From Arcobacter sp. (GTDB lineage Bacteria > Campylobacterota > Campylobacteria > Campylobacterales > Arcobacteraceae), in the NCBI GenBank assembly GCA_965662175.1, contig CBFIGT010000027.1, positions 1 to 23,391 of the forward strand: a DNA stretch of 23,391 nt, in the 5' to 3' direction. The position numbers and the translations under genes are program-made. A model generated the notes under the pieces. It worked only from the letters and a program-made list of their open reading frames with translations. It was not told where the DNA came from and did no database searches. Below, one piece after another: positions 2,769-19,625 of the stretch (position 1 is the stretch's first letter; each line of letters begins with the position of its first letter).

Positions 2769-3887
2769 ATGTCGGATCTAATTAAGCTAAGAGATAAGGC
2801 AACTAAACTAAGTGCTTTAATCGTAGAAGATAGTTTAACTATTCAAAAACAAATGAAAATATTTTTAGAAAAACTATTTGAAAAAGTTTATGTAGCTTCT
2901 GATGGTTTAGAGGCTTTAGAGCTTGTAAAAAGAGTTAATCCTGACATTATTCTAACAGATTTACAAATGCCAAGAATGGATGGCCATGAATTTATAGAGA
3001 ATTTAAAAAAGATAAATGATTCATCAGAAATTATTGTTTTTTCAGCATATGGCCACTCTGAAAATGTAATAAAGTTTTTAAGAATGGGAATAACTGACTT
3101 TTTACAAAAGCCTGTAAATTTTACACAATTAACAACATCTTTGTTAAAAGCAATTAACAACTTAAATGGAACAAAAAATTATGATGAAGAGAGATTTGAA
3201 GATGAAGTTTTACAAGATTTAAAAATCATAAAAGATAGTAAAAGCAGTGTTCACTTGGTAAATCATTATAAAGGTCTTCCTTTAATCCATGATGGATTTA
3301 TAAGCTCAGTTACAAAAGAAACCATATCAATACAAACACAAAAAATACAAACAAGAGCAATAGTTTATGAAAAATCCACTACAATTGAGACTGATAAGTT
3401 TATACTACAAGCTTCACTGAAATTTCATGATACTAGAAATAATGAGCTAGTTTTATTTGATTTAAAAAAGATTCCAAGGTCACCTAGGGATAGAGAGGTT
3501 TTAAGAGTAGACCCAAGAGATAATTTTACTGCAACTATATTTTCTAGTACTGAAAGATATAATATCAAAGTTAAAGATTTATCAACAAAATCACTCTCTT
3601 TCAAAATCAAATATTTTGATGAAAGATTAAAAATTGATGATCAACTAAATTTAATTATGGGCTTTAATACCCTATATTCAACCTCATATCATAATACAAT
3701 TACCCACAAAGAAAGAGTTGATTGCAAAGCTAAAATTTACAGAATAGAAGATCTTGGTAATAGCGAAACTAAAATAGTTATTTTATTTGATTTAAATCCT
3801 GCAAATAAAAAAATATTAGAAAAATATATTTATCAAAGGGAGATTGAAATCATCAAAGAGTTCAAACAACTCTCTTTTGACACATAA
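2769..3887 (+). CDS. Response regulator, receiver domain plus C-terminal PilZ-like domain
   Basis: REC motifs 'LIVEDS', 'ILTDLQMPRMDG', 'FSAY', 'FLQKP'. The C-terminal part has RxxxR ('REVLR') followed by 'DLSTKS' and the Campylobacterota-type tail 'LEKYIYQREIEIIKEFK'. The ATG directly abuts the kinase stop codon. Confidence 0.85.
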   Translation: MSDLIKLRDKATKLSALIVEDSLTIQKQMKIFLEKLFEKVYVASDGLEALELVKRVNPDIILTDLQMPRMDGHEFIENLKKINDSSEIIVFSAYGHSENVIKFLRMGITDFLQKPVNFTQLTTSLLKAINNLNGTKNYDEERFEDEVLQDLKIIKDSKSSVHLVNHYKGLPLIHDGFISSVTKETISIQTQKIQTRAIVYEKSTTIETDKFILQASLKFHDTRNNELVLFDLKKIPRSPRDREVLRVDPRDNFTATIFSSTERYNIKVKDLSTKSLSFKIKYFDERLKIDDQLNLIMGFNTLYSTSYHNTITHKERVDCKAKIYRIEDLGNSETKIVILFDLNPANKKILEKYIYQREIEIIKEFKQLSFDT

Positions 3888-3955
3888 ATAAACATTATTT
3901 ATATACAAATTATCTCTTTATTAATATAAACTAAAATCAATAAAGGAGATATTAT

Positions 3956-4735
3956 ATGAAAGTTGTATTAACAATTGCTGGAAGTGATAGCAGTGGTGGA
4001 GCGGGTATTCAAGCTGATTTAAAAACTTTTGAAGCCTTTGGAGTGTTTGGTTGTAGTGTTATTACAGTTTTAACAGCACAAAATACAAAAGGTGTTAGCC
4101 AAATACAAGAGTTACCTGCTTCTTTCATAAAAGCACAAATAGCTGCTGTTTTAGATGATTTTGATGTGGCTTGCATAAAAATTGGTATGCTTTTTTCAAA
4201 TGATATAATCAATGCTGTTATTGAGTCAATAAAAGATTTAAATATTCCTATTGTTTTTGACCCTGTATTTATATCAAAAGCTGGTTCTAAACTTTTAAAT
4301 GAAGATGCCATAGAGAACTTAAAAAATATTTTAGCTTTTTCTACAGTTACGACACCAAATTTATATGAAGCAAAAGAGCTTTTTTCATATGAGTTTGAAA
4401 ATAGTAACTCCCTAAATGGAGTTTTTAACTCTCCTTGCAAAGTTTTAATCAAAAATCAAATTATGGAAATAAATAATAAAAAAATATCTGTTGATAGCTT
4501 GTATAATGGAAAAGAAAAAAGAGAATTCAAATCAGATTTTATAGAGACTGAAAATCTTCACGGTACAGGATGTAGTTACTCAAGTGCAATTGCTGCAAAT
4601 TTAGCAAGGGGAAAAACACTTGAAGAGGCTATTGCCATATCTAAAGAGTTTATTTATCAAGCTATTAAAAACGCTCCAAATATAGGCCATGGAAAAGGTC
4701 CAATAGCACATAAAATAGGTTCTCAACTATGCTAA
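3956..4735 (+). CDS. thiD: Hydroxymethylpyrimidine/phosphomethylpyrimidine kinase
   Basis: 'LTIAGSDSSGGAGIQADLKTF', 'KIGML', 'DPV', 'TPNLYEA', 'HGTGCSYSSAIAA'. SD AAGGAG upstream. Confidence 0.95.
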   Translation: MKVVLTIAGSDSSGGAGIQADLKTFEAFGVFGCSVITVLTAQNTKGVSQIQELPASFIKAQIAAVLDDFDVACIKIGMLFSNDIINAVIESIKDLNIPIVFDPVFISKAGSKLLNEDAIENLKNILAFSTVTTPNLYEAKELFSYEFENSNSLNGVFNSPCKVLIKNQIMEINNKKISVDSLYNGKEKREFKSDFIETENLHGTGCSYSSAIAANLARGKTLEEAIAISKEFIYQAIKNAPNIGHGKGPIAHKIGSQLC

Positions 4736-5346
4736 ATGGTTTATATGTTATTACAGATAATAAATTAACTCCAAACAAAACTATTTTAAAACAAATAGAA
4801 CAAAGCCTAAAAGCAGGAGCTAAAATAGTTCAATTAAGAGATAAAAAGAATAGTATTGAAACTATTGAAAAGCTAGCTATTTCTATTCAAGATTTATGTA
4901 AAAAGTATAATGCCCTATTTGTTTTAAATGATGAAATAGAGTTAGCTATAAAACTAAAATGTGATGCTCTTCATATTGGAAAAAGTGACCATCACAACTT
5001 TGAAAAGATAAGAAAAGAGTTTAAAGGTATTATTGGAGTTTCCTGTTATGGAAATCTATCTTTAGCAAAAGAGTTTGAACTAAAAGGTGCAAATTATGTC
5101 GCTTTTGGTTCATTTTTTTCATCACCTACAAAACCACAATCAACTATAGTTCCATTTGATGTTTTAACAAAAGCAAAAGAGAGTTTGAGTATTCCTATTT
5201 GTGCAATTGGTGGAATTAATAGTGAAAATGTAAATAAATTACTAAAGTATAAACCTGATATGATTGCTTTAATAAGTGATATTTGGAGTGATGATATTAC
5301 AAAAAAAACAAATTTTTATAATAATATTTTAAAAGGAAAAGAATGA
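4729..5346 (+). CDS. thiE: Thiamine-phosphate synthase
   Basis: 'GLYVITD', 'VQLRDK', 'LNDE...DALHIGKSD', 'GVSCY', 'YVAFGSFFSSPTK', 'AIGGI'. Overlaps the end of thiD. Confidence 0.94.
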   Translation: MLNGLYVITDNKLTPNKTILKQIEQSLKAGAKIVQLRDKKNSIETIEKLAISIQDLCKKYNALFVLNDEIELAIKLKCDALHIGKSDHHNFEKIRKEFKGIIGVSCYGNLSLAKEFELKGANYVAFGSFFSSPTKPQSTIVPFDVLTKAKESLSIPICAIGGINSENVNKLLKYKPDMIALISDIWSDDITKKTNFYNNILKGKE

Positions 5347-5699
5347 AAGCCTTAGTTTTAATTGCCCACGGAAGCAAAAAAAAACAATCAAATGATGAAT
5401 TTAGAGAGTTAGTAGGATTAATAAGAGAACAAAACTCAGATAAATATGAGAAAATAATAGCCTCATTTTTAGAGATGGAATCCCCAAGTATTACAAATGT
5501 AGTTAAAGAGTTATCCTCAAAAAAAGTTAGCTCAATTACTTTTTATCCATTTTTCCTAAATTCAGGAAAACATGTAATAGTTGATATTCCAGATATTGTA
5601 GAAGAGTTAAAAAAAGAGTATCCAAATATTGAGTTTAAAATACTTCCTCATTTTGGACAATCATCTAAAATTGTTTCAATAATATCTCAAGATATATAA
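5343..5699 (+). CDS. Small single-domain CbiX/SirB-family (CbiX-S-like) tetrapyrrole chelatase
   Basis: 'LIAHGS', 'FLEMESPSI', 'PFFLNSGKHVIVDIP' include the two metal-binding His of class II chelatases. ATGA overlap with thiE. Confidence 0.85.
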   Translation: MKALVLIAHGSKKKQSNDEFRELVGLIREQNSDKYEKIIASFLEMESPSITNVVKELSSKKVSSITFYPFFLNSGKHVIVDIPDIVEELKKEYPNIEFKILPHFGQSSKIVSIISQDI

Positions 5700-5700
5700 A

Positions 5701-5744
5701 CTAACATTTTTTAGCTACTAATTTTTAAGCTCTTATTTTATACT
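5701..5744 (+). promoter_or_regulatory. Putative regulated sigma70 promoter: motif CTAACA-N5-TAGCTA, 21 nt, -10 TATACT
   Basis: CTAACA at 5701-5706, TAGCTA at 5712-5717, TATACT at 5739-5744. Same architecture as the sites at 10484-10527 and 14989-15032. Confidence 0.6.
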
Positions 5745-5765
5745 TAAATAAAAAAAGAGTTTAAA

Positions 5766-6668
5766 TTGAATATAGCAATAATTGGTGCGGGAATTAGTGG
5801 TTGTAACATCTATAATAGACTAAAAAAACAAAATCACAATATTACTATTTTTGATAAAGCTAGGGGAGTTGGTGGTAGATTATCAACTAAATATGTTGAT
5901 GATAAGTTTATAGACCATGGAACTTCAAGCTTTAAAGTCAATAATAGTTTATTTAAAGAGTTTTGTGATGAACTTATTTCAAATAAGATATTAATAAAAA
6001 AAGATGATGAATATTTTCCACTAAATGGTATAAATAAATTATGTTCATACTTAATAAATAAAAATGATTTAATAAAAAACCAAAGAATAACAAAAGCTGA
6101 GTTTATAGATAATAAGTGGAGCTTGATAAGTGAAGATGGCAATAAATATGATAGTTTTGATAAACTAATCATCACAATACCAACTCCACAAATACTACAA
6201 ATGCATATAAATCTAAGTGAAAATACAAAAAATTTATTAAATAGTGTAAGTTATGATAGCGTTGCAACGTTAATTTGCTATAGTAACAATATTATAAATT
6301 TAGAGCATCCAAAACTTTTTGAATCAGCACTATTTTCAAAAATTATAAATAACTCTAAAAAATATAACTACAAAAAGTTTTCAAGTTATGTTTTTCATAC
6401 AAATAGTGAATTTGCAAATAGTATTAATGAGTTATCAAAAGAGAAGATTGGCAAAAAAATCTACAAAAAAATTGAAGACTTGATTGGTGTTAATTTAGAT
6501 GAAGAGTGTTATACAGTTCCCCATCTTTGGAAATATGGAAAAGTTAAAAGCTATCTAAGTCAAGATTTTATATATGAAAATAGTTTGGGAATTTGTGGTG
6601 ATTATTTCAATGGAAATAGTTTGGAAAGTGCATATATTAGTTCAACAAAACTAAGTGCCAATATATAA
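5766..6668 (+). CDS. Renalase-like NAD(P)/FAD-dependent oxidoreductase (COG3380-type)
   Basis: Rossmann motif 'IAIIGAGISG', 'FDKARGVGGRLST', 'DHGT', 'PTPQ', 'HLWKY', 'GICGDYF...LESAYIS'. TTG start. Confidence 0.85.
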   Translation: MNIAIIGAGISGCNIYNRLKKQNHNITIFDKARGVGGRLSTKYVDDKFIDHGTSSFKVNNSLFKEFCDELISNKILIKKDDEYFPLNGINKLCSYLINKNDLIKNQRITKAEFIDNKWSLISEDGNKYDSFDKLIITIPTPQILQMHINLSENTKNLLNSVSYDSVATLICYSNNIINLEHPKLFESALFSKIINNSKKYNYKKFSSYVFHTNSEFANSINELSKEKIGKKIYKKIEDLIGVNLDEECYTVPHLWKYGKVKSYLSQDFIYENSLGICGDYFNGNSLESAYISSTKLSANI

Positions 6669-6683
6669 ATATAAGGAAAAAAG

Positions 6684-6947
6684 ATGTTAAAAGAGTTACT
6701 AAACACAGGGTTTGGAGCAGCTGCTATTTTAAAAGAGAAAATAGAAGAGGAGATGAAAACCTTAGAAGATAAAGGGAAAATCAAAAAAGAGGATGCAAAA
6801 TCTTTTTTAGAATCTTTAGAAAAAAAAGGTAAAGAAGAGGAGCAAAAAGCAAAAGATGAGATTAAAAAGCTTTTAAAAGAGGCAATTGATGAGTTAGGAC
6901 TTGCTACAAAAGAGGACTTAGCAAAATTAAAAGAGGATTTAAAATAA
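6684..6947 (+). CDS. Phasin-like/PHA-granule-associated (COG3937-type) small coiled-coil protein
   Basis: 'GFGAAAILKEKIE...KGKIKKEDAK' and 'LGLATKEDL' pattern, helical and highly charged. SD AAGGA upstream. Adjacent to an ABC1 kinase, a common pairing. Confidence 0.75.
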   Translation: MLKELLNTGFGAAAILKEKIEEEMKTLEDKGKIKKEDAKSFLESLEKKGKEEEQKAKDEIKKLLKEAIDELGLATKEDLAKLKEDLK

Positions 6948-8479
6948 ATCATTATTCACCAAAAAGAGTATTAAGTGTTTTTCTTTTTTTACTTACAATT
7001 TATTTAGTTATAAAAAGAAAAGATAGCTTTCTATTTTTAAAACCATTAAAGCCAAAAAAGCTAAAACATACTATTGTTAATTTGGGAGCTAGTTTTATAA
7101 AATTAGCTCAAGTACTAGCTACTAGGTCTGATTTTTTTTCAAAAGAGTATTTAGATGAATTAAAAGATTTACATGACCAAATTCCAGCTATGAACAAAAG
7201 CTCCTTTGATAAAATTTTTTACAGAGCATTTAGTGATAATAGCTTTGAAAAGTTTGATAAAAAACCAATTGCTTCTGCTTCCATTGGACAGGTTCATGTG
7301 GCTTATTTGAAAACAGGAGAAAAAGTTGCTGTAAAACTTAGACGAGATGGAATTAAAAAACAGGTTTTAGCCGATATAAAAATCATAAACTTTTTTAATC
7401 TAATCTTTAAACCTCTTTTTTCACACTATACAAAAAACTCAATAGAAGCCGTAATTGTAGAGTTTTCAAAGATGATAAAAGAGGAAGTTAGTCTTACAAA
7501 AGAGCTACAAAATCTACAAAAATTTTCCCATGTTTATAAAGATAGTGCTGTAAAATTTCCAAAAGCTTATGAAGAACTCTCTTGTGATGATGCTATTGTT
7601 ATGAGTTTTGAAGAGGGTTTTAGATTTGATGATAAAGAGAATATTTTTAAACACAATATTGATTTTAAAAAGATAATTGCAAATTTGGTTGATTTTTACA
7701 CTACACAAATGCTTATAAATGGATATTTTCACGCAGACCCACATCCAGGGAACTTACTTGTAAACAAAAGAGGTGAGTTAATCTTACTTGATTTTGGGAT
7801 GGTAAAAACTGTACCAAATGATAAAAGAATAGCTATTATTGAGCTTATAAAAGCAGCAAACGACCAAGATTATGAGCTTTATATAAATGCTAGCAAAAGA
7901 TTAGGAACTATCTCTTATGAAGCACCAACCTCTGAATTAGCTCTTTTTACCCAATCTATGTTTGATATTTTTTCAAATGATAATTTATCAAGTGAATCAA
8001 TGCAACAATTAGCTTTTGAAGTTTTGGAAACCACAAGAAATCTACCCTTTAAACTTCCAAGTGATGCAATATATATCTTAAGAGTGAGTGCTATTATTGA
8101 GGGATTAGGTACAACTTATATCGAAAACTTCAATGGAATAAAAGATATTTTACCAATCTTACAAAAAAATCTTCCAAAGGCATTGGGAGCAAAAGAGAGT
8201 ATAACTGAGACTATAATTGATGAGATAAAAGATTTACCTTTTTTTGTAAAAGATTTAAAAACTGTAATAAAAAAAGCTAGTGAGGGAAATCTTGAGATTG
8301 AGCTTTCAAACAATCAACTAAGCTATATTGCAAAAGAGTTAAAAGATTATACAAAAAGCACTCTAAGCTCTTTTGTAATTATTTTTTCAAGTTTTTTTGT
8401 GATACTTTATGATAAAGATTTAAAAGAGTTGGCTTTGGCTTTATTTGTAATTGGGGCTATAAAACTTATTTATAAATAA
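6944..8479 (+). CDS. ABC1/AarF/UbiB-family atypical kinase (start probably the non-canonical ATA at 6944, not TTG 7082)
   Basis: 'LGASFIKLAQVLATRSD', 'ASASIGQVH', 'VAVKLRR', 'FHADPHPGN', 'LLDFGM', plus two C-terminal hydrophobic segments. The frame is open upstream of 7082 back to a stop at 6890. Confidence 0.88.
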   Translation: MNHYSPKRVLSVFLFLLTIYLVIKRKDSFLFLKPLKPKKLKHTIVNLGASFIKLAQVLATRSDFFSKEYLDELKDLHDQIPAMNKSSFDKIFYRAFSDNSFEKFDKKPIASASIGQVHVAYLKTGEKVAVKLRRDGIKKQVLADIKIINFFNLIFKPLFSHYTKNSIEAVIVEFSKMIKEEVSLTKELQNLQKFSHVYKDSAVKFPKAYEELSCDDAIVMSFEEGFRFDDKENIFKHNIDFKKIIANLVDFYTTQMLINGYFHADPHPGNLLVNKRGELILLDFGMVKTVPNDKRIAIIELIKAANDQDYELYINASKRLGTISYEAPTSELALFTQSMFDIFSNDNLSSESMQQLAFEVLETTRNLPFKLPSDAIYILRVSAIIEGLGTTYIENFNGIKDILPILQKNLPKALGAKESITETIIDEIKDLPFFVKDLKTVIKKASEGNLEIELSNNQLSYIAKELKDYTKSTLSSFVIIFSSFFVILYDKDLKELALALFVIGAIKLIYK

Positions 8480-8512
8480 AAAAATAGGAGATATTAAATT
8501 TGTAACTTTAAT

Positions 8513-8539
8513 AGGGAGTAGTTAAAACTTCTACTCCCT
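8513..8539. terminator. Hairpin between convergent ABC1-kinase and hemH genes, probable bidirectional terminator
   Basis: AGGGAGTAG (8513-8521) and CTACTCCCT (8531-8539) form a perfect 9-bp inverted repeat. Confidence 0.7.
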
Positions 8540-8546
8540 TTAAAAA

Positions 8547-9479
8547 CTAAACAGCCTTATTATATAGTTCAACTAAAGTTTCCATAAAATATGGATGATG
8601 ATTAGGAGCTTTACAAACTCTATAATCTTTTATTCCAACCTCATCAGCTATCTCTTTATACTCAATAACTAGCTCAAACTCTGTTTCTGAATTATCAACT
8701 GTAAATGAAACAGGATAAACTATAACTTTTTCTTTTCCTAACTCTTTTAGTTTATCATCCATATATGGACGTAACCACTCAAGAGGTCCAAGTCTTGATT
8801 GGTAAGCAACTTGAATATCTTTAAACTTTATACCCTGTTTATTTAACTCTTTTTTAGCAGCTTCAACATTTGCTAAAATATGTTTTTGATAAAGGTCACC
8901 TTTATCTATAGTTCTTTTTGTTAAACCATGGGCTGAAAATAGTAATACAAACTCTTCACTATTATCCTTACCTATACACTCTTTGATTCTTTCAACTATT
9001 GCTTTATTGTAGTTTTCATTATCATAATATGAATCAACTGTTTTAATCTTAGCTTTTATACCTTGTTTTTTTACAGCCTTTTCAAAATCCTCAATTGATG
9101 ATTTTGTAGTTGTACTTGAATAGTGTGGATACATAGGGAGTGCTACTATTTCATCATACTCTTTTAGTTTTTGAACAACCTCTTTTGAAAAAGGTGGAGT
9201 ATATCTCATCACATGAAAAACATCAGCATCAAGTACTCTATTCAGTCTTCTAACAAGTCTTTTTGTATGTCCAACAATAGGTGACATTCCACCAAGTTGT
9301 GCATAATTCTCTTTTGCCTCTTTTGTTCTTAAAGTAGTAATTAAAAGACCTATCATAGCTCTTATTGGTTGTGGAGCTCCAATAATATATTTATCATTGA
9401 ACATATTTGTTAAAAATACTTTTACCTCATCTAAATTATTTGGTCCGCCCATATTCATTAGCACAACTGCTTTTTTCAT
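8547..9479 (-). CDS. hemH: Protoporphyrin ferrochelatase
   Basis: 'LMNMGGP', 'FLTNMFND', 'MRYTPP', 'LPMYPHYSSTTT', 'LFSAHGL', 'YQSRLGPLEWLRP', 'SFTVDNSETEFEL'. Confidence 0.96.
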   Translation of the reverse strand: MKKAVVLMNMGGPNNLDEVKVFLTNMFNDKYIIGAPQPIRAMIGLLITTLRTKEAKENYAQLGGMSPIVGHTKRLVRRLNRVLDADVFHVMRYTPPFSKEVVQKLKEYDEIVALPMYPHYSSTTTKSSIEDFEKAVKKQGIKAKIKTVDSYYDNENYNKAIVERIKECIGKDNSEEFVLLFSAHGLTKRTIDKGDLYQKHILANVEAAKKELNKQGIKFKDIQVAYQSRLGPLEWLRPYMDDKLKELGKEKVIVYPVSFTVDNSETEFELVIEYKEIADEVGIKDYRVCKAPNHHPYFMETLVELYNKAV

Positions 9480-9480
9480 C

Positions 9481-9930
9481 CTAATCCCTTATCTGTAATA
9501 ATTTTTTTGTTTGTTTATGTCTATATTCAAACATATTTTCTAGTTGATTTTCCATAAAGCCTGAGAATATATTTCCCAAAAAACCAAAAGGCAACTCATA
9601 CTCAACCACATCTTTTAACTCACAAACATCACCTTTTTTTGTGAAAATGTGTGAATGTCTCCAAAAACTAAATGGAGATTTTATAGCTGTATCAACTAGC
9701 ATATTTGGCTCTTTTATCAAAGAAATCTCTACACTCCAAATAGTTGGAATAAAAAATTTTGTAGTTTTTATATTTAAAACTTCACCCTCTTTTGCAACAA
9801 AGTTTTTATTTAAAAGTTCAACTTTTGTATCTTTTGGAGTAATTTTTTGTATATTATTTGAGTCCAAATGAAAGGCGAAAAGCTTCTCAATAGGACATGA
9901 TATTAATGTTTTTTTTTCATATTTTTTCAT
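9481..9930 (-). CDS. SRPBCC (START-like lipid/ligand-binding) family protein, COG4276-type
   Basis: 'LFAFH...NIQKITP', 'W...I...VD...SPFSFWRHSHIF', 'LKDVVEYELPFGFLG', 'MFEYRH'. ATGA overlap with the peroxidase. Confidence 0.85.
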   Translation of the reverse strand: MKKYEKKTLISCPIEKLFAFHLDSNNIQKITPKDTKVELLNKNFVAKEGEVLNIKTTKFFIPTIWSVEISLIKEPNMLVDTAIKSPFSFWRHSHIFTKKGDVCELKDVVEYELPFGFLGNIFSGFMENQLENMFEYRHKQTKKLLQIRD

Positions 9931-10460
9931 AATAACTCTAAAATATCTTTTTCAATTTCACTAGGTTCTGTTGATGGTGCATATCTTTTTATAACTTCAC
10001 CTTTTTGGTTAACTAAAAACTTTGTAAAGTTCCATTTGATTATTTTACTACCCAAAAAACCTGGTTCTTTCTCTTTTAAGTACTGATATAGTGGATGTGT
10101 ATTTTTACCATTTACATCTATTTTACTAAACATATCAAATTTCACATCATAATTTAGTGAACAAAACTCTTTTATCTCCTCTTCTGTTCCAGGTTCTTGT
10201 GATAAGAACTGATTACAAGGAAAACCTAAAATACTTAAGCCCTTTGAAGCATATTTATTATGTAAGTTTTGTAAGCCCTCATATTGATAGGTATATCCAC
10301 ACTTACTAGCCACATTTACAACTAAGATAACTTTATCTTTATATTTTGATAAACTTATCTCTTCATTATCTATCGTTTTTACTTTTATATTATAAATATC
10401 CATATTTGCAACTCCTAATAAAGGAATAAGAAAAAGAAATAAACTTATTAATTTTTTCAT
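9927..10460 (-). CDS. Cys-type glutathione peroxidase family protein with N-terminal signal peptide
   Basis: 'VNVASKCGYT' (peroxidatic Cys), 'GFPCNQF...QEPG', 'FC' resolving-Cys position, 'KWNFTKFLV'. N-terminus MKKLISLFLFLIPLLGVA resembles a Sec signal. SD AAGGAG. Confidence 0.94.
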   Translation of the reverse strand: MKKLISLFLFLIPLLGVANMDIYNIKVKTIDNEEISLSKYKDKVILVVNVASKCGYTYQYEGLQNLHNKYASKGLSILGFPCNQFLSQEPGTEEEIKEFCSLNYDVKFDMFSKIDVNGKNTHPLYQYLKEKEPGFLGSKIIKWNFTKFLVNQKGEVIKRYAPSTEPSEIEKDILELL

Positions 10461-10483
10461 AGAAACTCCTTCTATTTTTAATT

Positions 10484-10527
10484 ATTTTATCATGAAATAA
10501 TAAGAGTTAATAGTTGTATTCTGTAAG
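10484..10527 (-). promoter_or_regulatory. Putative regulated sigma70 promoter: motif CTTACA-N5-CAACTA, 21 nt, extended -10 TG-A-TAAAAT
   Basis: Minus strand reads CTTACA GAATA CAACTA TTAACTCTTATTATTTCATGA TAAAAT upstream of the peroxidase SD. Confidence 0.68.
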
Positions 10528-10528
10528 T

Positions 10529-11239
10529 TTAAAGACTTCTTCTATCTAAATACTCCCTAAACTCTTTAGCTCCATCTTTAGAACTTGTTACTATTGAATC
10601 AATATCTTCAAAACTAATAGTTAGTTTTGATTGCTCTACGCTTTCCATTGATTTAATTTTATCAACATTTACTATAATTGACCTATGAATTCTAAAAAAC
10701 TTTTTCTTATCAAGAAGTTTTTCCAAATCTCCTATTTTTCTTTTTACATAAACATCTGTATCTTTTATACGAATTATAACCTCATCTAAATCAGCTTTTA
10801 TAAAATATATATCATCTATTTTTATTAAATATATTTTATTTCCCCTTTTTCCTAAAAGTTTTTCATCACTTTGATTACCACTTTGTTTAAAGGCTTTAAT
10901 TTTTTCAAAAACTCTTTTTATTTCACTATTCTCAACAGGCTTTAATAAATAATCAATTCCACCTATTTTAAAAGCCTCAATTGCATACTCACTATAAGCT
11001 GTTTGAAATACAATAAAAGTTTTTGGCTCAATTGAAAGAATAGTATTAGCTAGCTCTAAACCACTCATTTGAGGCATTGATATATCCATAAATATAACAT
11101 CAAACTTTGTTTTTGTAGCTTCAACTAAAGCTTCAGTTGGAGAGTTGAAACTCTTTATATCTTCATAACCCTCATCATTTAAAAGTCTTGTTAATCTACT
11201 TATTGCTAACTTTTCATCATCTACTATCATTATCTTCAT
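10529..11239 (-). CDS. LytR/AlgR-family response regulator (REC + LytTR DNA-binding domain)
   Basis: 'IVDDEKLA', 'FMDISMPQMSGLE', 'FQTAYSEYAIEAF...DYLLKP'. LytTR signature 'FFRIHRSIIVN'. Confidence 0.95.
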   Translation of the reverse strand: MKIMIVDDEKLAISRLTRLLNDEGYEDIKSFNSPTEALVEATKTKFDVIFMDISMPQMSGLELANTILSIEPKTFIVFQTAYSEYAIEAFKIGGIDYLLKPVENSEIKRVFEKIKAFKQSGNQSDEKLLGKRGNKIYLIKIDDIYFIKADLDEVIIRIKDTDVYVKRKIGDLEKLLDKKKFFRIHRSIIVNVDKIKSMESVEQSKLTISFEDIDSIVTSSKDGAKEFREYLDRRSL

Positions 11240-12225
11240 ACATCACTCCTGTGAATTGTAAATTTCATTTTATTATTTTCAATTGAACTCTTTAAATAAC
11301 CTATTTTTAATATTTTTAATCTTTTTTGCAAATTATTAAGTCCAACTCCAAAAACCACATTTGAGGTAATTTTTCCACTATTTACTACTTCTATTCTATC
11401 GGCTTTTACATTAACATCTATTTTTAAATTATCACCCACAAAACCATGTTTTATTGCATTTTCTGCAAGTAATTGAATTGAAAACTTAGGTAGAAGCATA
11501 TCATAATATTTTTCATCACAATTTACATTAAACTCTATTTTCTCATCAAACCTAATATTTTCTATATGTAAATAGGTTTTTACCATTTCTATTTCACTCT
11601 TTAAATCAATCAAACCTTTTTTAGTAATTGCATTTCTTAAAAACTTTGAGAGTTTTAAAACAGACTCTTCTGCTCTTTTTTGGTCTTGATAAATAAGCTC
11701 TGAAATTGAGTTTAAGGCATTAAATAAAAAATGAGGATTTAATTCACTCTCCAAAGCTTCTAGTTTTGTCTCCAAAATCTCACTATTTGCTAACTCATTT
11801 TTGTATTTCATTGAGATAAATTGATGTAAAATCAAACCAATTAAAAATGTCAAAAGTCCTATAGTCATACTAATTGAAAACCAATATGGCTCTATTAAAC
11901 TAACTATTGGAATACTATTTGGAAATAGTAAATATGCTAAAAAAAATCCAAACCAACCAGCTAAAAAAGAGAAAAAGAAACTAATCAAATACCAAAACTT
12001 TTTATTTAAATTTGGCAAAATATAGTAGTTTGAAATGGAGATAAATAAAAAAGAGTTAAAAGAGATTAAAAAAGCACAAAAGGTTGAAAAAAGTATTGTA
12101 GAGATAAAACGAAGCTGCTCATTTATATAATAAAAAACAAGTGAAATTAAAAAACCAAAAAAAATCCCGATTATTATTATATAAACCCAATCTTTTATAG
12201 ATATTTTTAATTCAAAATCTTTCAT
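11236..12225 (-). CDS. LytS/YehU-type (His_kinase family) sensor kinase with about four TM helices and no large periplasmic domain
   Basis: H-box 'LNPHFLFNALNSI', 'YLHIENIRF', 'QLLAENAIKHG', 'GVGLNNLQKRL'. The N-terminal ~135 aa are hydrophobic. ATGA overlap with the regulator. Confidence 0.92.
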   Translation of the reverse strand: MKDFELKISIKDWVYIIIIGIFFGFLISLVFYYINEQLRFISTILFSTFCAFLISFNSFLFISISNYYILPNLNKKFWYLISFFFSFLAGWFGFFLAYLLFPNSIPIVSLIEPYWFSISMTIGLLTFLIGLILHQFISMKYKNELANSEILETKLEALESELNPHFLFNALNSISELIYQDQKRAEESVLKLSKFLRNAITKKGLIDLKSEIEMVKTYLHIENIRFDEKIEFNVNCDEKYYDMLLPKFSIQLLAENAIKHGFVGDNLKIDVNVKADRIEVVNSGKITSNVVFGVGLNNLQKRLKILKIGYLKSSIENNKMKFTIHRSDV

Positions 12226-13633
12226 TTAACTCCTTGTTTAAAACCTTTGCACCAAGTGCAACTCCAGGCCAACCTTGACCTGCAAATATAGTATCACCAA
12301 CATTATATAAACCTTTAAAAGGTGTTTTACAAGATGGCGTTGCTAAAATTGTTTTTGCATTTATGGAACTTCCTCCACAATTTACTCTTCCAATATATCT
12401 TTGAAAAGTCATACTTGTAGCACTAAATGCTTTTGTTATTTCTTCAGCTCTTATATTATCAAAATAAGCCAAAAACTCTTTTATTAAAAACTCTTGAGTT
12501 TTGTTTTTCTCTTTTTTATACTCATCTTTTGATAAGTTTTTCCAAAAAAGTGCTTTTGTATGGCTTGAAATAGTTACTGAGTATCCATTTTTACTAAGTT
12601 TTTCATCTTCAAGTTTTGAAAAAGAGATAAAAAATGAGTTTGAGATACAATTTGGAATATCATTATTTAAAATTATTTGATAATGTTCTAAAAAGGCTTC
12701 TTTACTGTTTATTGTTAAATATAAGGTAAAAGCACTTTGATCTGAAAATTTAAAACTATCATAATATTTATATATTTTAGTATCAAAGAAAAGCTCTTTT
12801 GTATCATAAATTGTAGAGTTTAAAACAACATTTTTTGCAAAATATTTATCTTTGTTACTTACTAGTAAATATCCATCATCTAATCTCTCTATATATTTTA
12901 TCTCTTCATTATTTTGAACATTTACACCTTTTAAAATTCCCTCAATAATATTTCCCATACCTTTATTTGCATAAAATACCTTATGAAAAGGGTAAGAAAG
13001 TCCTAAAGCCATAGATAAAAGCGACACATCTTTTGACTTACTTTGAACTGTTATTAAAAGTTGTGCATCAATAAAACTTTGATACTCTTTTGAAATATCC
13101 CCTAAATTTTCTTTTATAAAACTACTAGCACTTTTAAATAAATCTATTTTAAATGTACTTAATAAACCAATAAATGATTTTAGACTTTTAATATAAGCAT
13201 TTATGCTATGTTTTACAAAATATATATCTTTTTGTTGCCAAAACTTTTCATCTATCTCTTTGATTTTTGACCAAAAAGCTCTATTGTTTTTATTTGGATA
13301 TAAACTATCTATTTTGGCTAAAAACTGTTCAAAATCTTGAATCCTATCCAAAACTTTTCCATTTTGAACTGTTCTTATTGCTATTTGGGACTCTTTTATA
13401 TCAGGTTTAAATCCTATTTCATCAAATATCTCTTTTATAATATGATTATCTTCATAACCTACAAAAGTAGTTGCCCCAGCATTATAATAATTCCCATATC
13501 GCTTAAAAGTACTTGCACATCCACCAAGATTATTATCTTTTTCAAAAAGTATATGATTTTTCTCTTTGTTTAAAGCAGCTATCAAAGCCCCGCCAATTCC
13601 AGAGCCAACTATTGCTAAATCAAGCTTTTTCAT
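12212..13633 (-). CDS. Phytoene-desaturase/CrtD-like FAD-dependent oxidoreductase (COG1233-type)
   Basis: 'IVGSGIGG', 'FEK...LGGCASTFKRYG...NAGAT', 'ATSMTFQRY...G', C-terminal 'TPFKGLYNVGDTIFAGQGWPGVALGA'. Confidence 0.82.
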   Translation of the reverse strand: MKKLDLAIVGSGIGGALIAALNKEKNHILFEKDNNLGGCASTFKRYGNYYNAGATTFVGYEDNHIIKEIFDEIGFKPDIKESQIAIRTVQNGKVLDRIQDFEQFLAKIDSLYPNKNNRAFWSKIKEIDEKFWQQKDIYFVKHSINAYIKSLKSFIGLLSTFKIDLFKSASSFIKENLGDISKEYQSFIDAQLLITVQSKSKDVSLLSMALGLSYPFHKVFYANKGMGNIIEGILKGVNVQNNEEIKYIERLDDGYLLVSNKDKYFAKNVVLNSTIYDTKELFFDTKIYKYYDSFKFSDQSAFTLYLTINSKEAFLEHYQIILNNDIPNCISNSFFISFSKLEDEKLSKNGYSVTISSHTKALFWKNLSKDEYKKEKNKTQEFLIKEFLAYFDNIRAEEITKAFSATSMTFQRYIGRVNCGGSSINAKTILATPSCKTPFKGLYNVGDTIFAGQGWPGVALGAKVLNKELNERF

Positions 13634-14966
13634 TTTTTGCCATTTTAAAAGAGTCTATTGCTTTTTGTCGACTTAATTTTATATCAACAATTGGAGGGAT
13701 ATAGTATGAAAAAAGTCCATTACTTAAAGCACCCTCTTTATGAAAAAGTTTTGAATCCACATCTTTTAGACTTGGAATTACACTTTTTATAAAAATCCCA
13801 TCTTTATCAAATTTTTCAGATTGAGAATAGGGATTAAAAACTCTAAAATATGGAGCCGCATCAGCTCCTGTACTAGCACTCCACTGCCATGAACCAATAT
13901 TTGAACTAGCCTCATAATCAAGAAGTTTTGAAGCAAAATACTCTTCTCCTCTTCTCCAATCTATAAAAAGATTTTTTGTCAAAAATGAAGCAACTATCAT
14001 TCTTAGACGATTTGGCATTGTTCCTGTTTTATTTAGGTGTATCATTGCAGCATCTACAATTGCCACCCCTGTTTTTCCCTCGCACCACTTTATAAAATCA
14101 TCCTCATTTTGATTCCAGTTTAGATTAATTCCATTCCAGTTTTGATTTTCACTTTTTGGAAAATGGTATAAAATATAGTTAAAAAACTCTCTCCAAAAAA
14201 GTTGTCTTATAAAGACCTCTACATTTTTGTGATTTGATTTTTTATATTTATTAAATAGTATTCTAGGGCTTATTGTTCCAAATCTTAAATCAACTCCTAA
14301 ATTTGAGGTTCCATCTTTATAAAAAATATCTCTATTATCTTTATATTCATCTAGTTTTTCTTCAAAGCTATCTACTCTCTCTTTTACACTTAAGGTAAAA
14401 AACTTCTCCAAACTAGCTTTTTTAAAGCCCATCTCTTCTAAACTTGGTATCTCTTTTTTTTCATATTTTATTAGTTTGATATTTGGATTTATTTTTGACT
14501 CAGTTAATTTTGAACTCTCCCATAACCAAGAAAGAGATTTATAAAAAGGTGTAAATACTTTATAAGGGGTTTTATCAGCTTTCAAAGCCTCATTTGGATG
14601 GGTTAAAAAAGAGTCATAAAATCTTCTCATAGGAATAATTTGCTCAATCTCTTCATCTCTTTTTTTTGCATATGAATCAAAATCACAAGAGCATAAGACC
14701 TCATCAAAACCCATAGGTTTTAAGCTATTAAAAACATTTTTAGCTTCATCATAAAAAACATATAAATCAAGTCCAAGATTTTGTAAAGATTTTTTTAAAT
14801 TTAAAACAGCATCATAAATAAAAGTAACTCTTTTATCATCACTTTTTAATTTAGATAAAATGTTTTTATCAAATATAAAAATAGGCATCACTTTGCCACT
14901 AGATTGCTCTAATATTTTATTATCTTCAACTCTTAAATCTCTTCTAAACCAAACTATTTGTTTCAA
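13620..14966 (-). CDS. phrB: Deoxyribodipyrimidine photolyase (class I CPD photolyase-like)
   Basis: 'VWFRRDLRVEDN', 'PYKVFTPFYK', 'RQLFWREF', 'WCEGKTG..IVDAAM', 'NRLRMIVASFLTK', 'IDWR.GE.YF', 'NIGSWQWSASTGADAAPYFRVFNP..QSEKFD'. TTG start with SD AGGGA. Confidence 0.94.
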   Translation of the reverse strand: MKQIVWFRRDLRVEDNKILEQSSGKVMPIFIFDKNILSKLKSDDKRVTFIYDAVLNLKKSLQNLGLDLYVFYDEAKNVFNSLKPMGFDEVLCSCDFDSYAKKRDEEIEQIIPMRRFYDSFLTHPNEALKADKTPYKVFTPFYKSLSWLWESSKLTESKINPNIKLIKYEKKEIPSLEEMGFKKASLEKFFTLSVKERVDSFEEKLDEYKDNRDIFYKDGTSNLGVDLRFGTISPRILFNKYKKSNHKNVEVFIRQLFWREFFNYILYHFPKSENQNWNGINLNWNQNEDDFIKWCEGKTGVAIVDAAMIHLNKTGTMPNRLRMIVASFLTKNLFIDWRRGEEYFASKLLDYEASSNIGSWQWSASTGADAAPYFRVFNPYSQSEKFDKDGIFIKSVIPSLKDVDSKLFHKEGALSNGLFSYYIPPIVDIKLSRQKAIDSFKMAKNEKA

Positions 14967-14988
14967 GCTAATCCCTAATTTTATTTTT

Positions 14989-15032
14989 ATAATATAGGAA
15001 CAATAAGATTTTTGGTAGTTGAAATTTGTAAG
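14989..15032 (-). promoter_or_regulatory. Putative regulated sigma70 promoter: motif CTTACA-N5-CAACTA, 21 nt, -10 TATTAT
   Basis: Minus strand reads CTTACA AATTT CAACTA CCAAAAATCTTATTGTTCCTA TATTAT upstream of phrB. Both hexamers are identical to those at 10511-10527. Confidence 0.68.
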
Positions 15033-15038
15033 ATAATG

Positions 15039-15065
15039 ATAAAAAGAGCTAAAAGCTCTTTTTAT
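15039..15065 (-). terminator. Intrinsic terminator after mltC
   Basis: ATAAAAAGAGCT-AAA-AGCTCTTTTTAT is a perfect inverted repeat with a T-tract on either strand. It lies downstream of mltC and just upstream of the phrB promoter motif. Confidence 0.8.
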
Positions 15066-16352: not shown

Positions 16353-16688
16353 CTACTTTCTGTTTAAACTACAATAATAATTTTCTAATATCTCACATTT
16401 AGTACACTCCAAGGTTCTTTCATCTTTTTCACAAGAAACACAAGGACTTGATTGAGTAAAATCTCTTTTTACAAAGCAATTTGGATTATTAACAGCCATA
16501 TAAGATACATTTTCCACAGGGTCATAGGCTAGTTTCTCCAGTAATTCAGGTGATGAATTTTTATTTCTAGCAACTGCTCTTCTTATATTAGCATCCATAT
16601 TTAATGTGAGTATATTTAAAATATCTAAACTACTAGTACTCTTTGCTATATTTAAAAGCTCTTCTTTTGGCATAACTTGAGTATTCAT
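16353..16688 (-). CDS. Small protein with leucine-rich-repeat-variant (LRV/HEAT-like) repeats and C-terminal CxxC-x8-CxxC
   Basis: 'NIRRAVARNKNSSPELLEKLAYDPVENVSYMAVNNPN' is LRV-like, followed by 'CVSCEKDERTLECTKC'. ATG 16688 has SD AAAGGA, so it is preferred over the TTG 16724 in the ORF track. Confidence 0.72.
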   Translation of the reverse strand: MNTQVMPKEELLNIAKSTSSLDILNILTLNMDANIRRAVARNKNSSPELLEKLAYDPVENVSYMAVNNPNCFVKRDFTQSSPCVSCEKDERTLECTKCEILENYYCSLNRK

Positions 16689-16715
16689 TTTACATCCTTT
16701 AAATTTAATAATAAA

Positions 16716-16747
16716 ATTATACAATAAAAAAGTGTTAAAAAAGTGTT
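16716..16747 (-). promoter_or_regulatory. Promoter of LRV gene: -10 TATAAT with a perfect 11-bp tandem repeat immediately upstream
   Basis: Plus strand TAAAAAAGTGT occurs twice (16725-16735 and 16736-16746). Minus-strand TATAAT at 16716-16721. Confidence 0.55.
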
Positions 16748-16850: not shown

Positions 16851-19625
16851 TTATTTTATCTCTTTGGTAAACTCCTCAAAAAGATAAGTGGAAAGGGGTT
16901 TTTCTAACTTTAACTCTAACTCTATGGGTCTGTTATTTTTATATTTATGATTTTTTGCAAGACCTAAATATATAAAATTTTGTACTTTTTTATCAACATG
17001 TGAAAATTTCCTTACAAAAATATGAAGTTTTACTCCAAATTTATCAATATTTATCAATTTTTCACCATCACCTTTATCAATTGACATACTTGGTTTGCTA
17101 ATATAAGTAAAACGCTCTTTGTCTAAAAAGTCATTTTGATATTTTGAAGCTTTTGAAAACTTATCCTTTTCAATAGTAATAAAAAGAAAAAAGTCATTTT
17201 GGTATTTTAAAAATCCGCTTCCCCTAAAAGAGCTATGTATTTTTGGAAAATTACAAAGTTTTGCAATATTTAACATATTATAAGATTCATAAAGTTTTAA
17301 AAATGGTATTCCATAATCTTTTATACCAAAACTCTTTTCATAAACCAAAATCCCATAATTTATAAGATCTAAAAAATACTCTTTAAAGCTGCTATTTTCT
17401 AAAAGCTTTTTAAACTCTTTTGTTTTTATTAACTTTTCATCTTCAAACTCAACAAGTTTTAAAAATCTTCCAACTTGAGCACTATCATGAAACTCTTGAT
17501 TTAAAAATCTAAAACTATGATTTATACTCTCTTTTAATGGCTTTTCCAAATAGTTTTCAAGTACTTTAAATATGCTATTTTCATCACAAAAACTATTTTC
17601 ACAAAGATACTTAAGTATAGAAAATTCATATACTCTTTTTATAGGTAAAAGTGATTCTAGGAATCTACAAGCTTTTATAAAATCACTATTTTTACACATA
17701 AGAAGAAACTCATCTTTTTTTTCAACTTTTGCCAAGAACTCTATATAAGAGCGACTTTCACTAATAAAAGGAAGAGGTGAGATAAAATCATCATAAGCAA
17801 TATAATCCTCTAAAGTAGCTATTTTATTTCCTAAAATAGCTTTAAACTCAAAATATTTCTCTTTTAAATACTTCATACAATTAAAGTTTTCATCATCAAT
17901 TTGCTCTAATATTCTATTTTTAGAGATTTCATCCATACTTATATATGCATTTTTTATATTTGCAAAGTTATTTAAAATTGATAACTTTATACTCTCTTTA
18001 TCAATCTTTTTATTTCCCACTAATGCCAAAGCTATTAAATAAGCTTTTTTATGATTTCCAATAAAATCCAAAAGTGTCAAGAACTCTTTTTTATCACTTT
18101 TTCTAAGTCCACGTCCAAGTTGCTGTACAAAAATAATTGCTGAGTTTGTTGGTCTTAACATCAAAACTGTATTTATTGATGGAATATCAATCCCCTCATT
18201 AAAAATATCAACAGAAAAAATCACTTCCAAACTACACTTATCATTTTCAAGCTCTTTTATAATCTTTTCTCTTTTTTCTATTGAGTCATTACTTGTTAAA
18301 TAAGTTGAAACAACTCCTCTTTTATTAAACTCTTCACTCATATAAAAAGCATGCTCTTTTGAGACACAAAAAGCTAAAGCTTTTCTTTTATTTCCACTAA
18401 AACCATAAAAGTTCATCTTCTCTATTATAAAATCAACCCTTCTATTTACCATCAAAAGTTTTGCTAATAAATCTATTTTTGATAAATCTATTTCACTATA
18501 ATCTATAGATTCAATATCACTTATTCCATAATAATGAAATGGTGTAATAAGACTATTTTCCAAAGCATCATTTAGTCTTATATCACAAGCAATATTTTCA
18601 TCAAAAATATCATAAATAGATTTTTTATCACTTCTATTTGGAGTTGCTGTTAAACCTAATAAAAAACTTGGTTTAAAATACTCAATTACCTTTTCATATG
18701 AATTAGCGCTTATATGATGGGCTTCATCTACAACTATATAATCAAACTCTTTTTGAGAAAAGTTCTCATAATTTGAACTTAGGGTTTGAATAGTTGCAAA
18801 TATATAATCCTTTTCTAGCTCTTTTTTATTTCCTGTATATAATCCACAAGATTTATTTGAAATAATATTTTCAAAACTCTCTTTTGCTTTTATTAAAATA
18901 TTTTCCCTATGAACAATAAAAAGTGCCCTTTTTGCTTTGAAATTTTTTATATCAATTGCAGCTAAATATGTTTTTCCTGAACCCGTTGCTGCTATACATA
19001 AGGCTTTTGATTGATTGTTTTTTCTAAAAAAGTTTAATTTTTCCACTGCCTCTTTTTGCATATGATTTAAAATAAACTCTTTTTTATAAACAAACTTCTC
19101 TAAAACTTGTTTTTTACAAAATTCATCATAAGCCTTTATAAACTCTTCATCAACACTGAGTGAATTTTCAAATAATGAGTTAAACTCAAAAAAAATCTCT
19201 TTTGTAAAAATATCATCTTTTTTTGATATGCTTTTTATATTCCATTCGATATTTGTCTTAAAAGCACTAGCTGTTATATTTGAAGAACCAAGTAAAATCT
19301 TATACTCATTTTCATACTCAAAAATATAAGCTTTTGTATGAAAACCCCTATTTTCCATATTTGAATCATATATTTTCAACTCAATATTATCAAAGTTCAA
19401 TAAACTTAAAAGAGCTTTCCCTTGGGTAAAATTTAGATAAGTTGATGTTAGAATCTTCCCTTTAATACCTTTTTTTCTACAAGTTTCTAAGCTATCAAGA
19501 AGTAATTGAACTCCTGAAAAATTTACAAAAGCTACACTAAAATAGAAACTTTTACAATCTTTTAAAAGATTTGTAATATGATTATAAAAATTTGAAGCCT
19601 CACTATTTACAATAAGTTTATTCAA
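16851..19625 (-). CDS. PLD-nuclease / SF2 helicase / DUF3427 fusion, SauUSI-like type IV (modification-dependent) restriction enzyme
   Basis: PLD 'FHTKAYIF...GSSNITASA...NIEWN', Walker A 'ATGSGKT', 'DEAHH', 'LTATP', 'DIFNEGIDIP', 'QQLGRGLR', C-terminal 'FLFITIEK...YQNDF...LHIFVRK...FIYLG' (DUF3427-like). No adjacent methyltransferase. Confidence 0.85.
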   Translation of the reverse strand: MNKLIVNSEASNFYNHITNLLKDCKSFYFSVAFVNFSGVQLLLDSLETCRKKGIKGKILTSTYLNFTQGKALLSLLNFDNIELKIYDSNMENRGFHTKAYIFEYENEYKILLGSSNITASAFKTNIEWNIKSISKKDDIFTKEIFFEFNSLFENSLSVDEEFIKAYDEFCKKQVLEKFVYKKEFILNHMQKEAVEKLNFFRKNNQSKALCIAATGSGKTYLAAIDIKNFKAKRALFIVHRENILIKAKESFENIISNKSCGLYTGNKKELEKDYIFATIQTLSSNYENFSQKEFDYIVVDEAHHISANSYEKVIEYFKPSFLLGLTATPNRSDKKSIYDIFDENIACDIRLNDALENSLITPFHYYGISDIESIDYSEIDLSKIDLLAKLLMVNRRVDFIIEKMNFYGFSGNKRKALAFCVSKEHAFYMSEEFNKRGVVSTYLTSNDSIEKREKIIKELENDKCSLEVIFSVDIFNEGIDIPSINTVLMLRPTNSAIIFVQQLGRGLRKSDKKEFLTLLDFIGNHKKAYLIALALVGNKKIDKESIKLSILNNFANIKNAYISMDEISKNRILEQIDDENFNCMKYLKEKYFEFKAILGNKIATLEDYIAYDDFISPLPFISESRSYIEFLAKVEKKDEFLLMCKNSDFIKACRFLESLLPIKRVYEFSILKYLCENSFCDENSIFKVLENYLEKPLKESINHSFRFLNQEFHDSAQVGRFLKLVEFEDEKLIKTKEFKKLLENSSFKEYFLDLINYGILVYEKSFGIKDYGIPFLKLYESYNMLNIAKLCNFPKIHSSFRGSGFLKYQNDFFLFITIEKDKFSKASKYQNDFLDKERFTYISKPSMSIDKGDGEKLINIDKFGVKLHIFVRKFSHVDKKVQNFIYLGLAKNHKYKNNRPIELELKLEKPLSTYLFEEFTKEIK

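Follow-up and report, generated by a model that had tools for sequence, protein, structure and literature searches.

We propose that an imperfect tandem repeat recurring in the promoters of an Arcobacter sp. gene cluster is an activator site for the response regulator LytR, through which the two-component system LytS/LytR would switch on a photo-oxidative defence regulon of free-living Campylobacterales. On the sequence evidence laid out here, we give this reading a probability of about three in four. The DNA is a stretch of 23,391 nucleotides (the window; contig CBFIGT010000027.1 of assembly GCA_965662175.1, our contig C27) from a genome of 2,595,773 bp with 27.8% GC, whose assembly is 94% complete. 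A preliminary description of it had reported three promoters sharing the string CTWACA-N5-YARCTA, followed after 21 nt by a -10 box. The three strings, their 21-nt spacers and the -10-like hexamers are present at 5701-5744 (plus strand), 10527-10484 (minus) and 15032-14989 (minus), and all three sites are real, but a fourth, before thiD (3883-3932), had been missed. In the register adopted here, the four sites are as follows.

3883 to 3932, plus strand: the fourth site, operator and -10 before thiD-thiE-cbiX; repeat 1 at 3883-3894, repeat 2 at 3904-3915, -10 TAAACT at 3927-3932; score 15.2.
5695 to 5744, plus strand: operator and -10 before the renalase-like operon; repeat 1 at 5695-5706, repeat 2 at 5716-5727, -10 TATACT at 5739-5744; score 23.4.
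10484 to 10533, minus strand: operator and -10 before gpx-SRPBCC-hemH; repeat 1 at 10533-10522, overlapping the lytR stop codon, repeat 2 at 10512-10501, extended -10 TGaTAAAAT ending at 10484; score 17.4.
14989 to 15038, minus strand: operator and -10 before phr-crt-lytS-lytR; repeat 1 at 15038-15027, repeat 2 at 15017-15006, -10 TATTAT at 14994-14989; score 16.7.

The element was defined from other genomes. LytR orthologues were found in 100 of the 151 genomes of the family (Arcobacteraceae) searched and, among 301 genomes taken across the order, in 26 genomes of 10 other families. We examined about 9 kb on each side of 80 of the 99 family LytR matches and of 20 of the 26 from other families. 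A matrix seeded with 34 sites, chosen by a pattern drawn from the relatives' promoters with the window excluded, converged on 188 sites in 668 upstream regions. The conserved element reads TAYnAAYTRACA-N9-TACWAAnnnnY, and the core of the matrix is T-n-A-A-Y-T-R-A-C-A, eight A/T-rich bases and M-T-A-C-W-A-A. The motif is conserved in orthologous promoters in the form of a longer element shifted in register. The original consensus was overfitted: it matches exactly in 5 of 197 orthologous sites, and as a search string, exact or relaxed, it missed the promoters of the closest relatives. The heptamer TCTTATT does occur in all three spacers but is not conserved (2 of the 197 sites), and we rejected it as a third element.

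The full earlier pattern is rare, with three matches in the 2,595,773-bp genome, all in the window, and four when the -10 is left out of it; because the pattern was built from those very sites, the three-match count is post hoc, hence the independent test on other genomes. In a held-out test, a site was present in 12 of 20 loci from other families. A matrix made from 171 sites of other genera placed the three originally described sites 2nd, 6th and 9th of the 19 genome matches that score at least 8 and have a -10 at the expected distance; without the -10 requirement, their ranks are 2nd, 10th and 23rd of 5.18 million positions. All four window sites fall within the top nine genome matches of this matrix having a -10. 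Two window sites overlap a TAA stop codon; a stop-codon artefact was rejected, the same logo being obtained from 103 sites clear of the previous gene. A generic sigma70 scan gave 64 matches versus 68.7 in shuffles and did not discriminate. That the conserved element is real is, in our judgement, practically beyond doubt.

The architecture of the element points to a promoter-bound regulator. The -10 lay outside the matrix, yet TAnnnT stands at position 43 in 147 of 197 sites and at position 42 in a further 45 (192 of 197), compared with 7-42 sites at ten other position pairs. The fixed -10 distance of the preliminary description therefore holds for its three sites, but across the orthologous sites it takes two adjacent values. 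The orientation of the element relative to the gene is constant. Its second box, TACWAA, ends 16-17 nt before the -10, the place expected for a -35 hexamer, and copy 2 of the repeat starts 22-23 nt before the -10. With TAnnnT so placed, the proximal repeat would occupy the -35 position, which bears out the activator-type position suggested earlier. When the matrix is compared with itself, columns -1 to 10 match best at an offset of 21 (28 offsets tried) and columns 20 to 31 at -21 (34 tried), and 21 bp is again the best offset in the 103 sites clear of the previous gene. The unit common to both copies is TAYnAAnnnnC. An inverted repeat between the boxes was rejected, since no offset stood out beyond a weak self-palindrome of box 1. 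Published LytTR sites consist of repeats of 9-11 nt separated by 11-13 nt, with no common consensus (PMC4847170); our element agrees with this layout, which has a period of about 21-22 nt, albeit imperfectly. Sigma70 promoters of C. jejuni are reported as gnTAnaAT without a -35 element (PMC3847290), and those of Arcobacter may, by analogy, be alike.

Four lines of evidence point to the local LytTR regulator, which the preliminary description had named as the candidate binder: conservation, the 21-bp repeat geometry, the co-distribution of the motif with lytR and the presence of a single LytTR protein in the genome. We consider it very likely that LytR binds the conserved element. In at least 95% of 101 orthologues, LytR keeps D7, D8, D52, T80, K100 and the F-R-H-R-S motif (F181-S187). 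Towards the C-terminus, the stretches A149-E153, F181-S187 and S219-K225 show little variation in these proteins, down to about 37% identity, as would be expected if DNA specificity were kept; by comparison with AgrA, they may be the DNA-contact loops. A motif pattern including the -10 was counted in 150 genomes of the family and compared with its reversal as a control: the 99 lytR+ genomes have 6.23 matches per genome versus 1.87 for the control, and the 51 lytR- genomes 1.59 versus 1.45. In 7 of 8 mixed genera the counts were higher for the lytR+ members. Searched with a LytTR-domain query, the 51 lytR- genomes gave no match; the query did recover three distant positives. Among 13 photolyase loci in lytR- genomes, 9 lack a site and 4 have one, and the hemH2 type of ferrochelatase occurs in 60 of 99 lytR+ versus 5 of 51 lytR- genomes. 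In the 94% complete genome studied here, one sigma70 region-2 match was found, in a 655-codon frame.

In our genome, 8 of 1383 upstream regions score at least 12: those of the four window sites, of a DASH cryptochrome gene on C34 and a lipocalin gene on C99, of an operon of flavin oxidoreductase, cfa, SDR and lipocalin genes (C69) and ovoA (C41). The site of the cfa operon scores 14.3 and has no -10 at 42/43. Another site, scoring 18.7 and with a -10, is found 209 nt ahead of pdxH, the leading gene in front of a photolyase-related gene and two genes for DNA repair. Three photolyase/cryptochrome genes of the genome thus stand in operons headed by sites. The remaining matches scoring above 15 fall within genes or directly against them and appear to be chance matches; shuffled-column controls gave 0-5 matches of at least 17, versus 7 real ones. 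Within the 100 lytR loci and the window, a site scoring at least 12 precedes ybgA in 49 of 59 cases, hemH in 24 of 25, a TIGR01777 epimerase gene in 21 of 24 and the SRPBCC gene in 16 of 18; the figures are 12/15 for an 87-aa gene, 11/13 for lipocalin, 15/24 for crt, 8/15 for phr, 7/11 for gpx and 11/19 for thiD. For all other genes together it is 15/519, and most of these 15 head related genes (renalase, LRV, SDR). The preliminary description had united ten genes on both strands into one regulon; the operons it joined do appear to belong together, but the predicted regulon is larger, with 13 genes in the window, thiD-thiE-cbiX included, and at least three operons elsewhere.

Some loci at the margin of this regulon are worth recording. 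The site before ovoA (ovothiol synthase; C41 3821, minus strand, locus L248) was present in 4 of 17 lytR+ and 0 of 10 lytR- genomes checked; ovoA could be a member of patchy occurrence, which would bring an antioxidant pathway into the regulon. The leader of the pdxH operon (C99 6456-6247, minus strand, locus L249), about 150 nt long, contains a perfect 10-bp long-range inverted repeat; folding of the whole leader was not significant (z = -0.85). At C72 10536 (minus strand) a high-scoring site with a -10 is situated within a 250-aa gene and ahead of two small Cys-rich ORFs, and similar strings occur among the match lists of same-genus genomes; it may reflect coding constraint or an internal promoter. 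A borderline site (11.9-12.9) with a -10 precedes the gene for the ribonucleotide reductase beta subunit (C14 6831, plus strand). The LRV-repeat protein gene at 16353-16724 (minus strand) of the window has no scoring site; its relatives in loci L136 and L152 have upstream sites (21.3 and 25.0).

We suggest a plausible mechanism for signalling through LytS. Its H and N boxes (H165, N256) are conserved in at least 95% of 98 orthologues. The sensor, with four hydrophobic segments, is modelled as four long helices joined by short loops (pLDDT 89.6), and L6, D12, W13, L70, P71, W78, G90, G123 and T126 are invariant in 24 aligned sensors. The sensor of the window protein matched no Pfam family and no PDB sequence, and its first Atlas matches, at 0.90, are without family. 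It has 478 homologues; among the 120 listed, the few that are named belong to Campylobacterales. A sensor profile matched in 19 of 301 genomes of the phylum and in 0 of 214 genomes of the two largest families sampled, whose genomes of 1.5-1.8 Mb suggest host-associated lineages. As LytS lacks an outside domain, the simplest reading is that it senses within the membrane. The four-helix LytS, with almost no outside loop, would sense something in the membrane, and we lean towards an oxidised lipid or quinone, or porphyrin-driven singlet-oxygen damage, as its input. In all probability phosphate would then pass from H165 of LytS to D52 of LytR, as is known for the family. Two phosphorylated LytR domains would very likely bind the two repeats in tandem, and the proximal one would probably take the place of the -35 element, absent from sigma70 promoters of C. 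jejuni, and recruit RNA polymerase. The site before phr-crt-lytS-lytR would make the system positively autoregulated.

As for the signal, light or singlet oxygen appears the better guess, held with modest confidence. Six public RNA runs with small shares were listed; the three inspected consist of contigs and carry no information on start sites. In 82 of 98 loci, the gene immediately ahead of lytS encodes a CrtD-like flavoenzyme. A role for it in a carotenoid pathway was rejected, as no phytoene synthase was found in the genome. In Rhodobacter, cfa and RSP1091 are reported to be needed for sigmaE activation (PMC3546557); by analogy, we conjecture that the CrtD-like enzyme makes or modifies the lipid that is sensed.

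Several observations weigh against LytR as the activator of this regulon. Eight of the 20 loci of other families lack a site scoring at least 12. Because the matrix and the pattern were drawn from lytR loci, the figure of 76 family loci with a site, out of 80, is circular, as is some of the lytR+ count, and because the genomes are related the counts overstate independence and are to be taken as supportive, not as a significance test. In our own genome, neither ybgA nor the TIGR01777 gene has a site directly upstream. The direct repeat is imperfect, with YTRACA strong only in copy 1 and TACnAA in copy 2, and offsets of 13 and 17 come next best after 21. Characterised LytTR repeats are found ahead of the -35, by 4-11 bp (PMC6193735) or, for AgrA, at about -60 (PMC4227749); here the position is fixed, but copy 2 lies on the -35 and not upstream of it. 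Finally, a single-contig, 99% complete lytR- genome (G130) has three sites (18.6, 19.0 and 12.0; loci L225 and L233), and searches of it found no LytTR domain, lytS or crt; the lytS search, made in five genomes, had no positive control, whereas the LytTR searches had one. Because hemH2 and nmt1, cassette neighbours in that genus, were also not found there, we would read its sites as relics of a recent loss of the block. The fragmented lytR- genomes G100, G113 and G057 have sites as well; among these three, a contig break inside crt just before lytS was seen only for G100.

The sites of G130 bear on two other explanations, both of which we consider improbable. If LytR were a repressor that covers the -35 region and blocks polymerase until the signal releases it, sites retained after the loss of lytR would be harmless; the proximal repeat does overlap the polymerase footprint, and AgrA is reported to repress one promoter, bsaA, until it is oxidised (PMC4227749). 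A repressor, however, needs no fixed phase, and the two adjacent -10 distances and the constant orientation fit contact with polymerase; we consider LytR a probable activator at these promoters. Alternatively, an unlinked regulator could bind the element, with LytS/LytR a mere member of the regulon. The retention of three sites without LytR in G130 and the imperfect repeat with its rival offsets would accord with this, and the genome does encode other candidates, a stand-alone ChrR-like double cupin of 205 aa (C197 167-781, minus strand) and a stand-alone B12-binding protein. Yet the motif is at background level across the 51 lytR- genomes as a group, the element has a 21-bp period, no site precedes the cupin gene, and the B12 protein, at 231 aa, has by inspection no room for an N-terminal DNA-binding domain.

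A different objection leaves LytR as the binder and changes the signal, to general oxygen or peroxide stress or to a metabolite (the CrtD-like product or a heme precursor) and not light. LytS has no recognisable photoreceptor or cofactor domain, thiD, pdxH, ovoA and the EAL genes are not light-specific, and RpoE2 of Shewanella is reported to respond to H2O2 too (PMC4336711); we still think this rather unlikely, given that the site-headed operons of the genome include three photolyase/cryptochrome genes, whose products serve only in light. That the element is an alternative-sigma promoter or the ordinary texture of AT-rich promoters is hardly credible, even though it occupies the core promoter region in a 28% GC genome and a periodic upstream signal is described for Campylobacter promoters (PMC3847290): the -10 is of the sigma70 type, the 94% complete genome yielded one sigma70 region-2 protein, and the scarcity of sites before other genes (15/519, and 8/1383 in our genome) largely refutes it through gene specificity.

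The genes around the sites are arranged in two facing groups. On the minus strand the order is phr, crt-like oxidoreductase, lytS, lytR, gpx, SRPBCC and hemH; facing it on the plus strand are the renalase-like gene, the 87-aa gene and the ABC1 kinase gene, with thiD-thiE-cbiX ahead of them.

3956 to 5699, plus strand: thiD-thiE-cbiX, likely peripheral members of the regulon (family match; thiD upstream sites in related loci).
5766 to 6668, plus strand: renalase-like FAD/NAD(P) oxidoreductase (Pfam).
6684 to 6947, plus strand: 87-aa protein without a Pfam match, tentatively labelled phasin-like.
6944 to 8479, plus strand: ABC1/UbiB atypical kinase (Pfam), its frame open from ATA at 6944.
8547 to 9479, minus strand: second ferrochelatase, hemH2 type (family match), 46% identical to its paralogue on contig C67.
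9481 to 9930, minus strand: SRPBCC (polyketide cyclase-like) protein (weak Pfam match, E 7e-4).
9927 to 10460, minus strand: glutathione peroxidase family protein (gpx) with a hydrophobic N-terminus (family match).
10529 to 11239, minus strand: LytR, response regulator of 236 aa with receiver and LytTR domains (Pfam, orthologue alignment), 87-88% identical to Arcobacter proteins, including that of A. iocasae.
11236 to 12225, minus strand: LytS-type histidine kinase (PF06580) of 329 aa (Pfam; H165 box and N box conserved).
12212 to 13633, minus strand: CrtD/CrtH-like FAD oxidoreductase (family match).
13620 to 14966, minus strand: DNA photolyase (phr; family match).

A 12-pair hairpin at 15039-15065, likely the mltC terminator, ends right before repeat 1 of the phr promoter. 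In the ABC1 kinase gene, an open and conserved reading frame extends back to a non-canonical codon, with a 4-nt overlap at the upstream stop (6944-6947, plus strand); the ORF finder places its start at 7082. Across 25 loci the overlap reads ATAA in 20, CTAA in 2, TTAA in 1, ATAG in 1 and the canonical GTGA in 1, which suggests a conserved ATA-type start used through translational coupling. A PLD-helicase-DUF3427 protein, possibly a restriction-like defence gene, is encoded at 16851-19625 (minus strand) and is also found near the cluster in loci L114 and L150.

Taking these results together, we tentatively offer a fuller picture, which we hold to be possible but somewhat doubtful as a whole: in free-living Campylobacterales a membrane-embedded kinase with a sensor of a new type would sense singlet-oxygen or light damage, possibly with the CrtD-like enzyme encoded just ahead of it, and phosphorylated LytR would replace the missing -35, making the system a two-component substitute for RpoE-ChrR and a phosphorelay sensor of membrane damaged by photo-oxidation. 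If true, this would illustrate clearly how a regulon can be rewired to an unrelated regulator, and its LytTR site would be unusually placed. A function would thereby be predicted for an orphan two-component system that two thirds of the Arcobacteraceae genomes searched possess, with bearing on the sunlight survival of water- and food-borne bacteria. How non-phototrophs detect singlet oxygen is described as open even for ChrR (PMC3546557), and a kinase with a 145-residue sensor would be a small handle on the question. G130 offers a natural test case for relic operators.

The literature searched, which left most subscription journals and regulon databases outside its scope, and which covered Arcobacter, Sulfurimonas and Campylobacterota at large, contained no description of a LytTR regulator paired with this target set or of its site on the -35, and a term search of PMC9239204 found no mention of LytTR. 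Beyond the phylum, none of 76 more distant LytTR loci listed has photolyase, crt, ybgA or hemH in its flank, and four have gpx, which shows little. LitR/CarH and MerR-type light regulators are one-component repressors of photolyase and light-stress genes; none was found accompanying the cluster among the commonest 45 families listed. A role of MerR in the Vibrio light response has been reported (PMC5241685).

Among known systems, LytS/LytR is close to YpdA/YpdB, BtsS/BtsR and AgrC/AgrA, in which a PF06580 kinase adjoins a receiver-LytTR regulator with the FxRxHRS motif; H and N boxes and, in the adjoining regulator, a phospho-acceptor Asp are all present. The sensors of BtsSR, YpdAB and LytSR proper consist of 5TM-5TMR_LYT plus GAF. 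Unlike in these systems, the proximal repeat here would lie on the -35, the targets are photoprotection genes and the four-helix sensor is without family; equivalog scores fall below the cut-offs (122.5 versus 246 bits for BtsR, 115.3 versus 375 for LytR), which sets the system apart from BtsSR, YpdAB and LytSR proper. The operator itself, a tandem direct repeat of about 21-bp period, is of the LytS/LytTR kind (PMC4847170). LRS systems (HdrRM, BrsRM) likewise combine a membrane partner with LytTR, 9-bp repeats 12 bp apart and autoregulation, but their repeats are described 4-11 bp upstream of the -35 (PMC6193735); an LRS has a non-kinase membrane inhibitor and no phosphosignalling, whereas the system described here has a histidine kinase as partner, with intact residues in both kinase and receiver.

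In its targets, the regulon recalls that of RpoE-ChrR in Rhodobacter, Shewanella and Vibrio, with photolyase, a photolyase-related protein, cfa in a flavin oxidoreductase operon, ybgA, gpx and a second ferrochelatase. The reported targets of Shewanella RpoE2 include pgpD-hemH2, ybgA-phrB-cfa and a photolyase-related protein (PMC4336711), and the core targets of RpoE-ChrR (photolyase, cfa, the flavin oxidoreductase operon; compare PMC3546557) were found behind our sites, the likeness being one of family. No ECF sigma factor was found in our genome, which is 94% complete, and its ChrR-like protein is the 205-aa double cupin. Unlike the TGATCC...CGTA promoters of RpoE, those described here combine a sigma70 -10 with the repeat, and phosphorylation would be the means of control. 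Regulator family and target set are each already known; what appears to be new is their pairing and the placement of the site on the -35.

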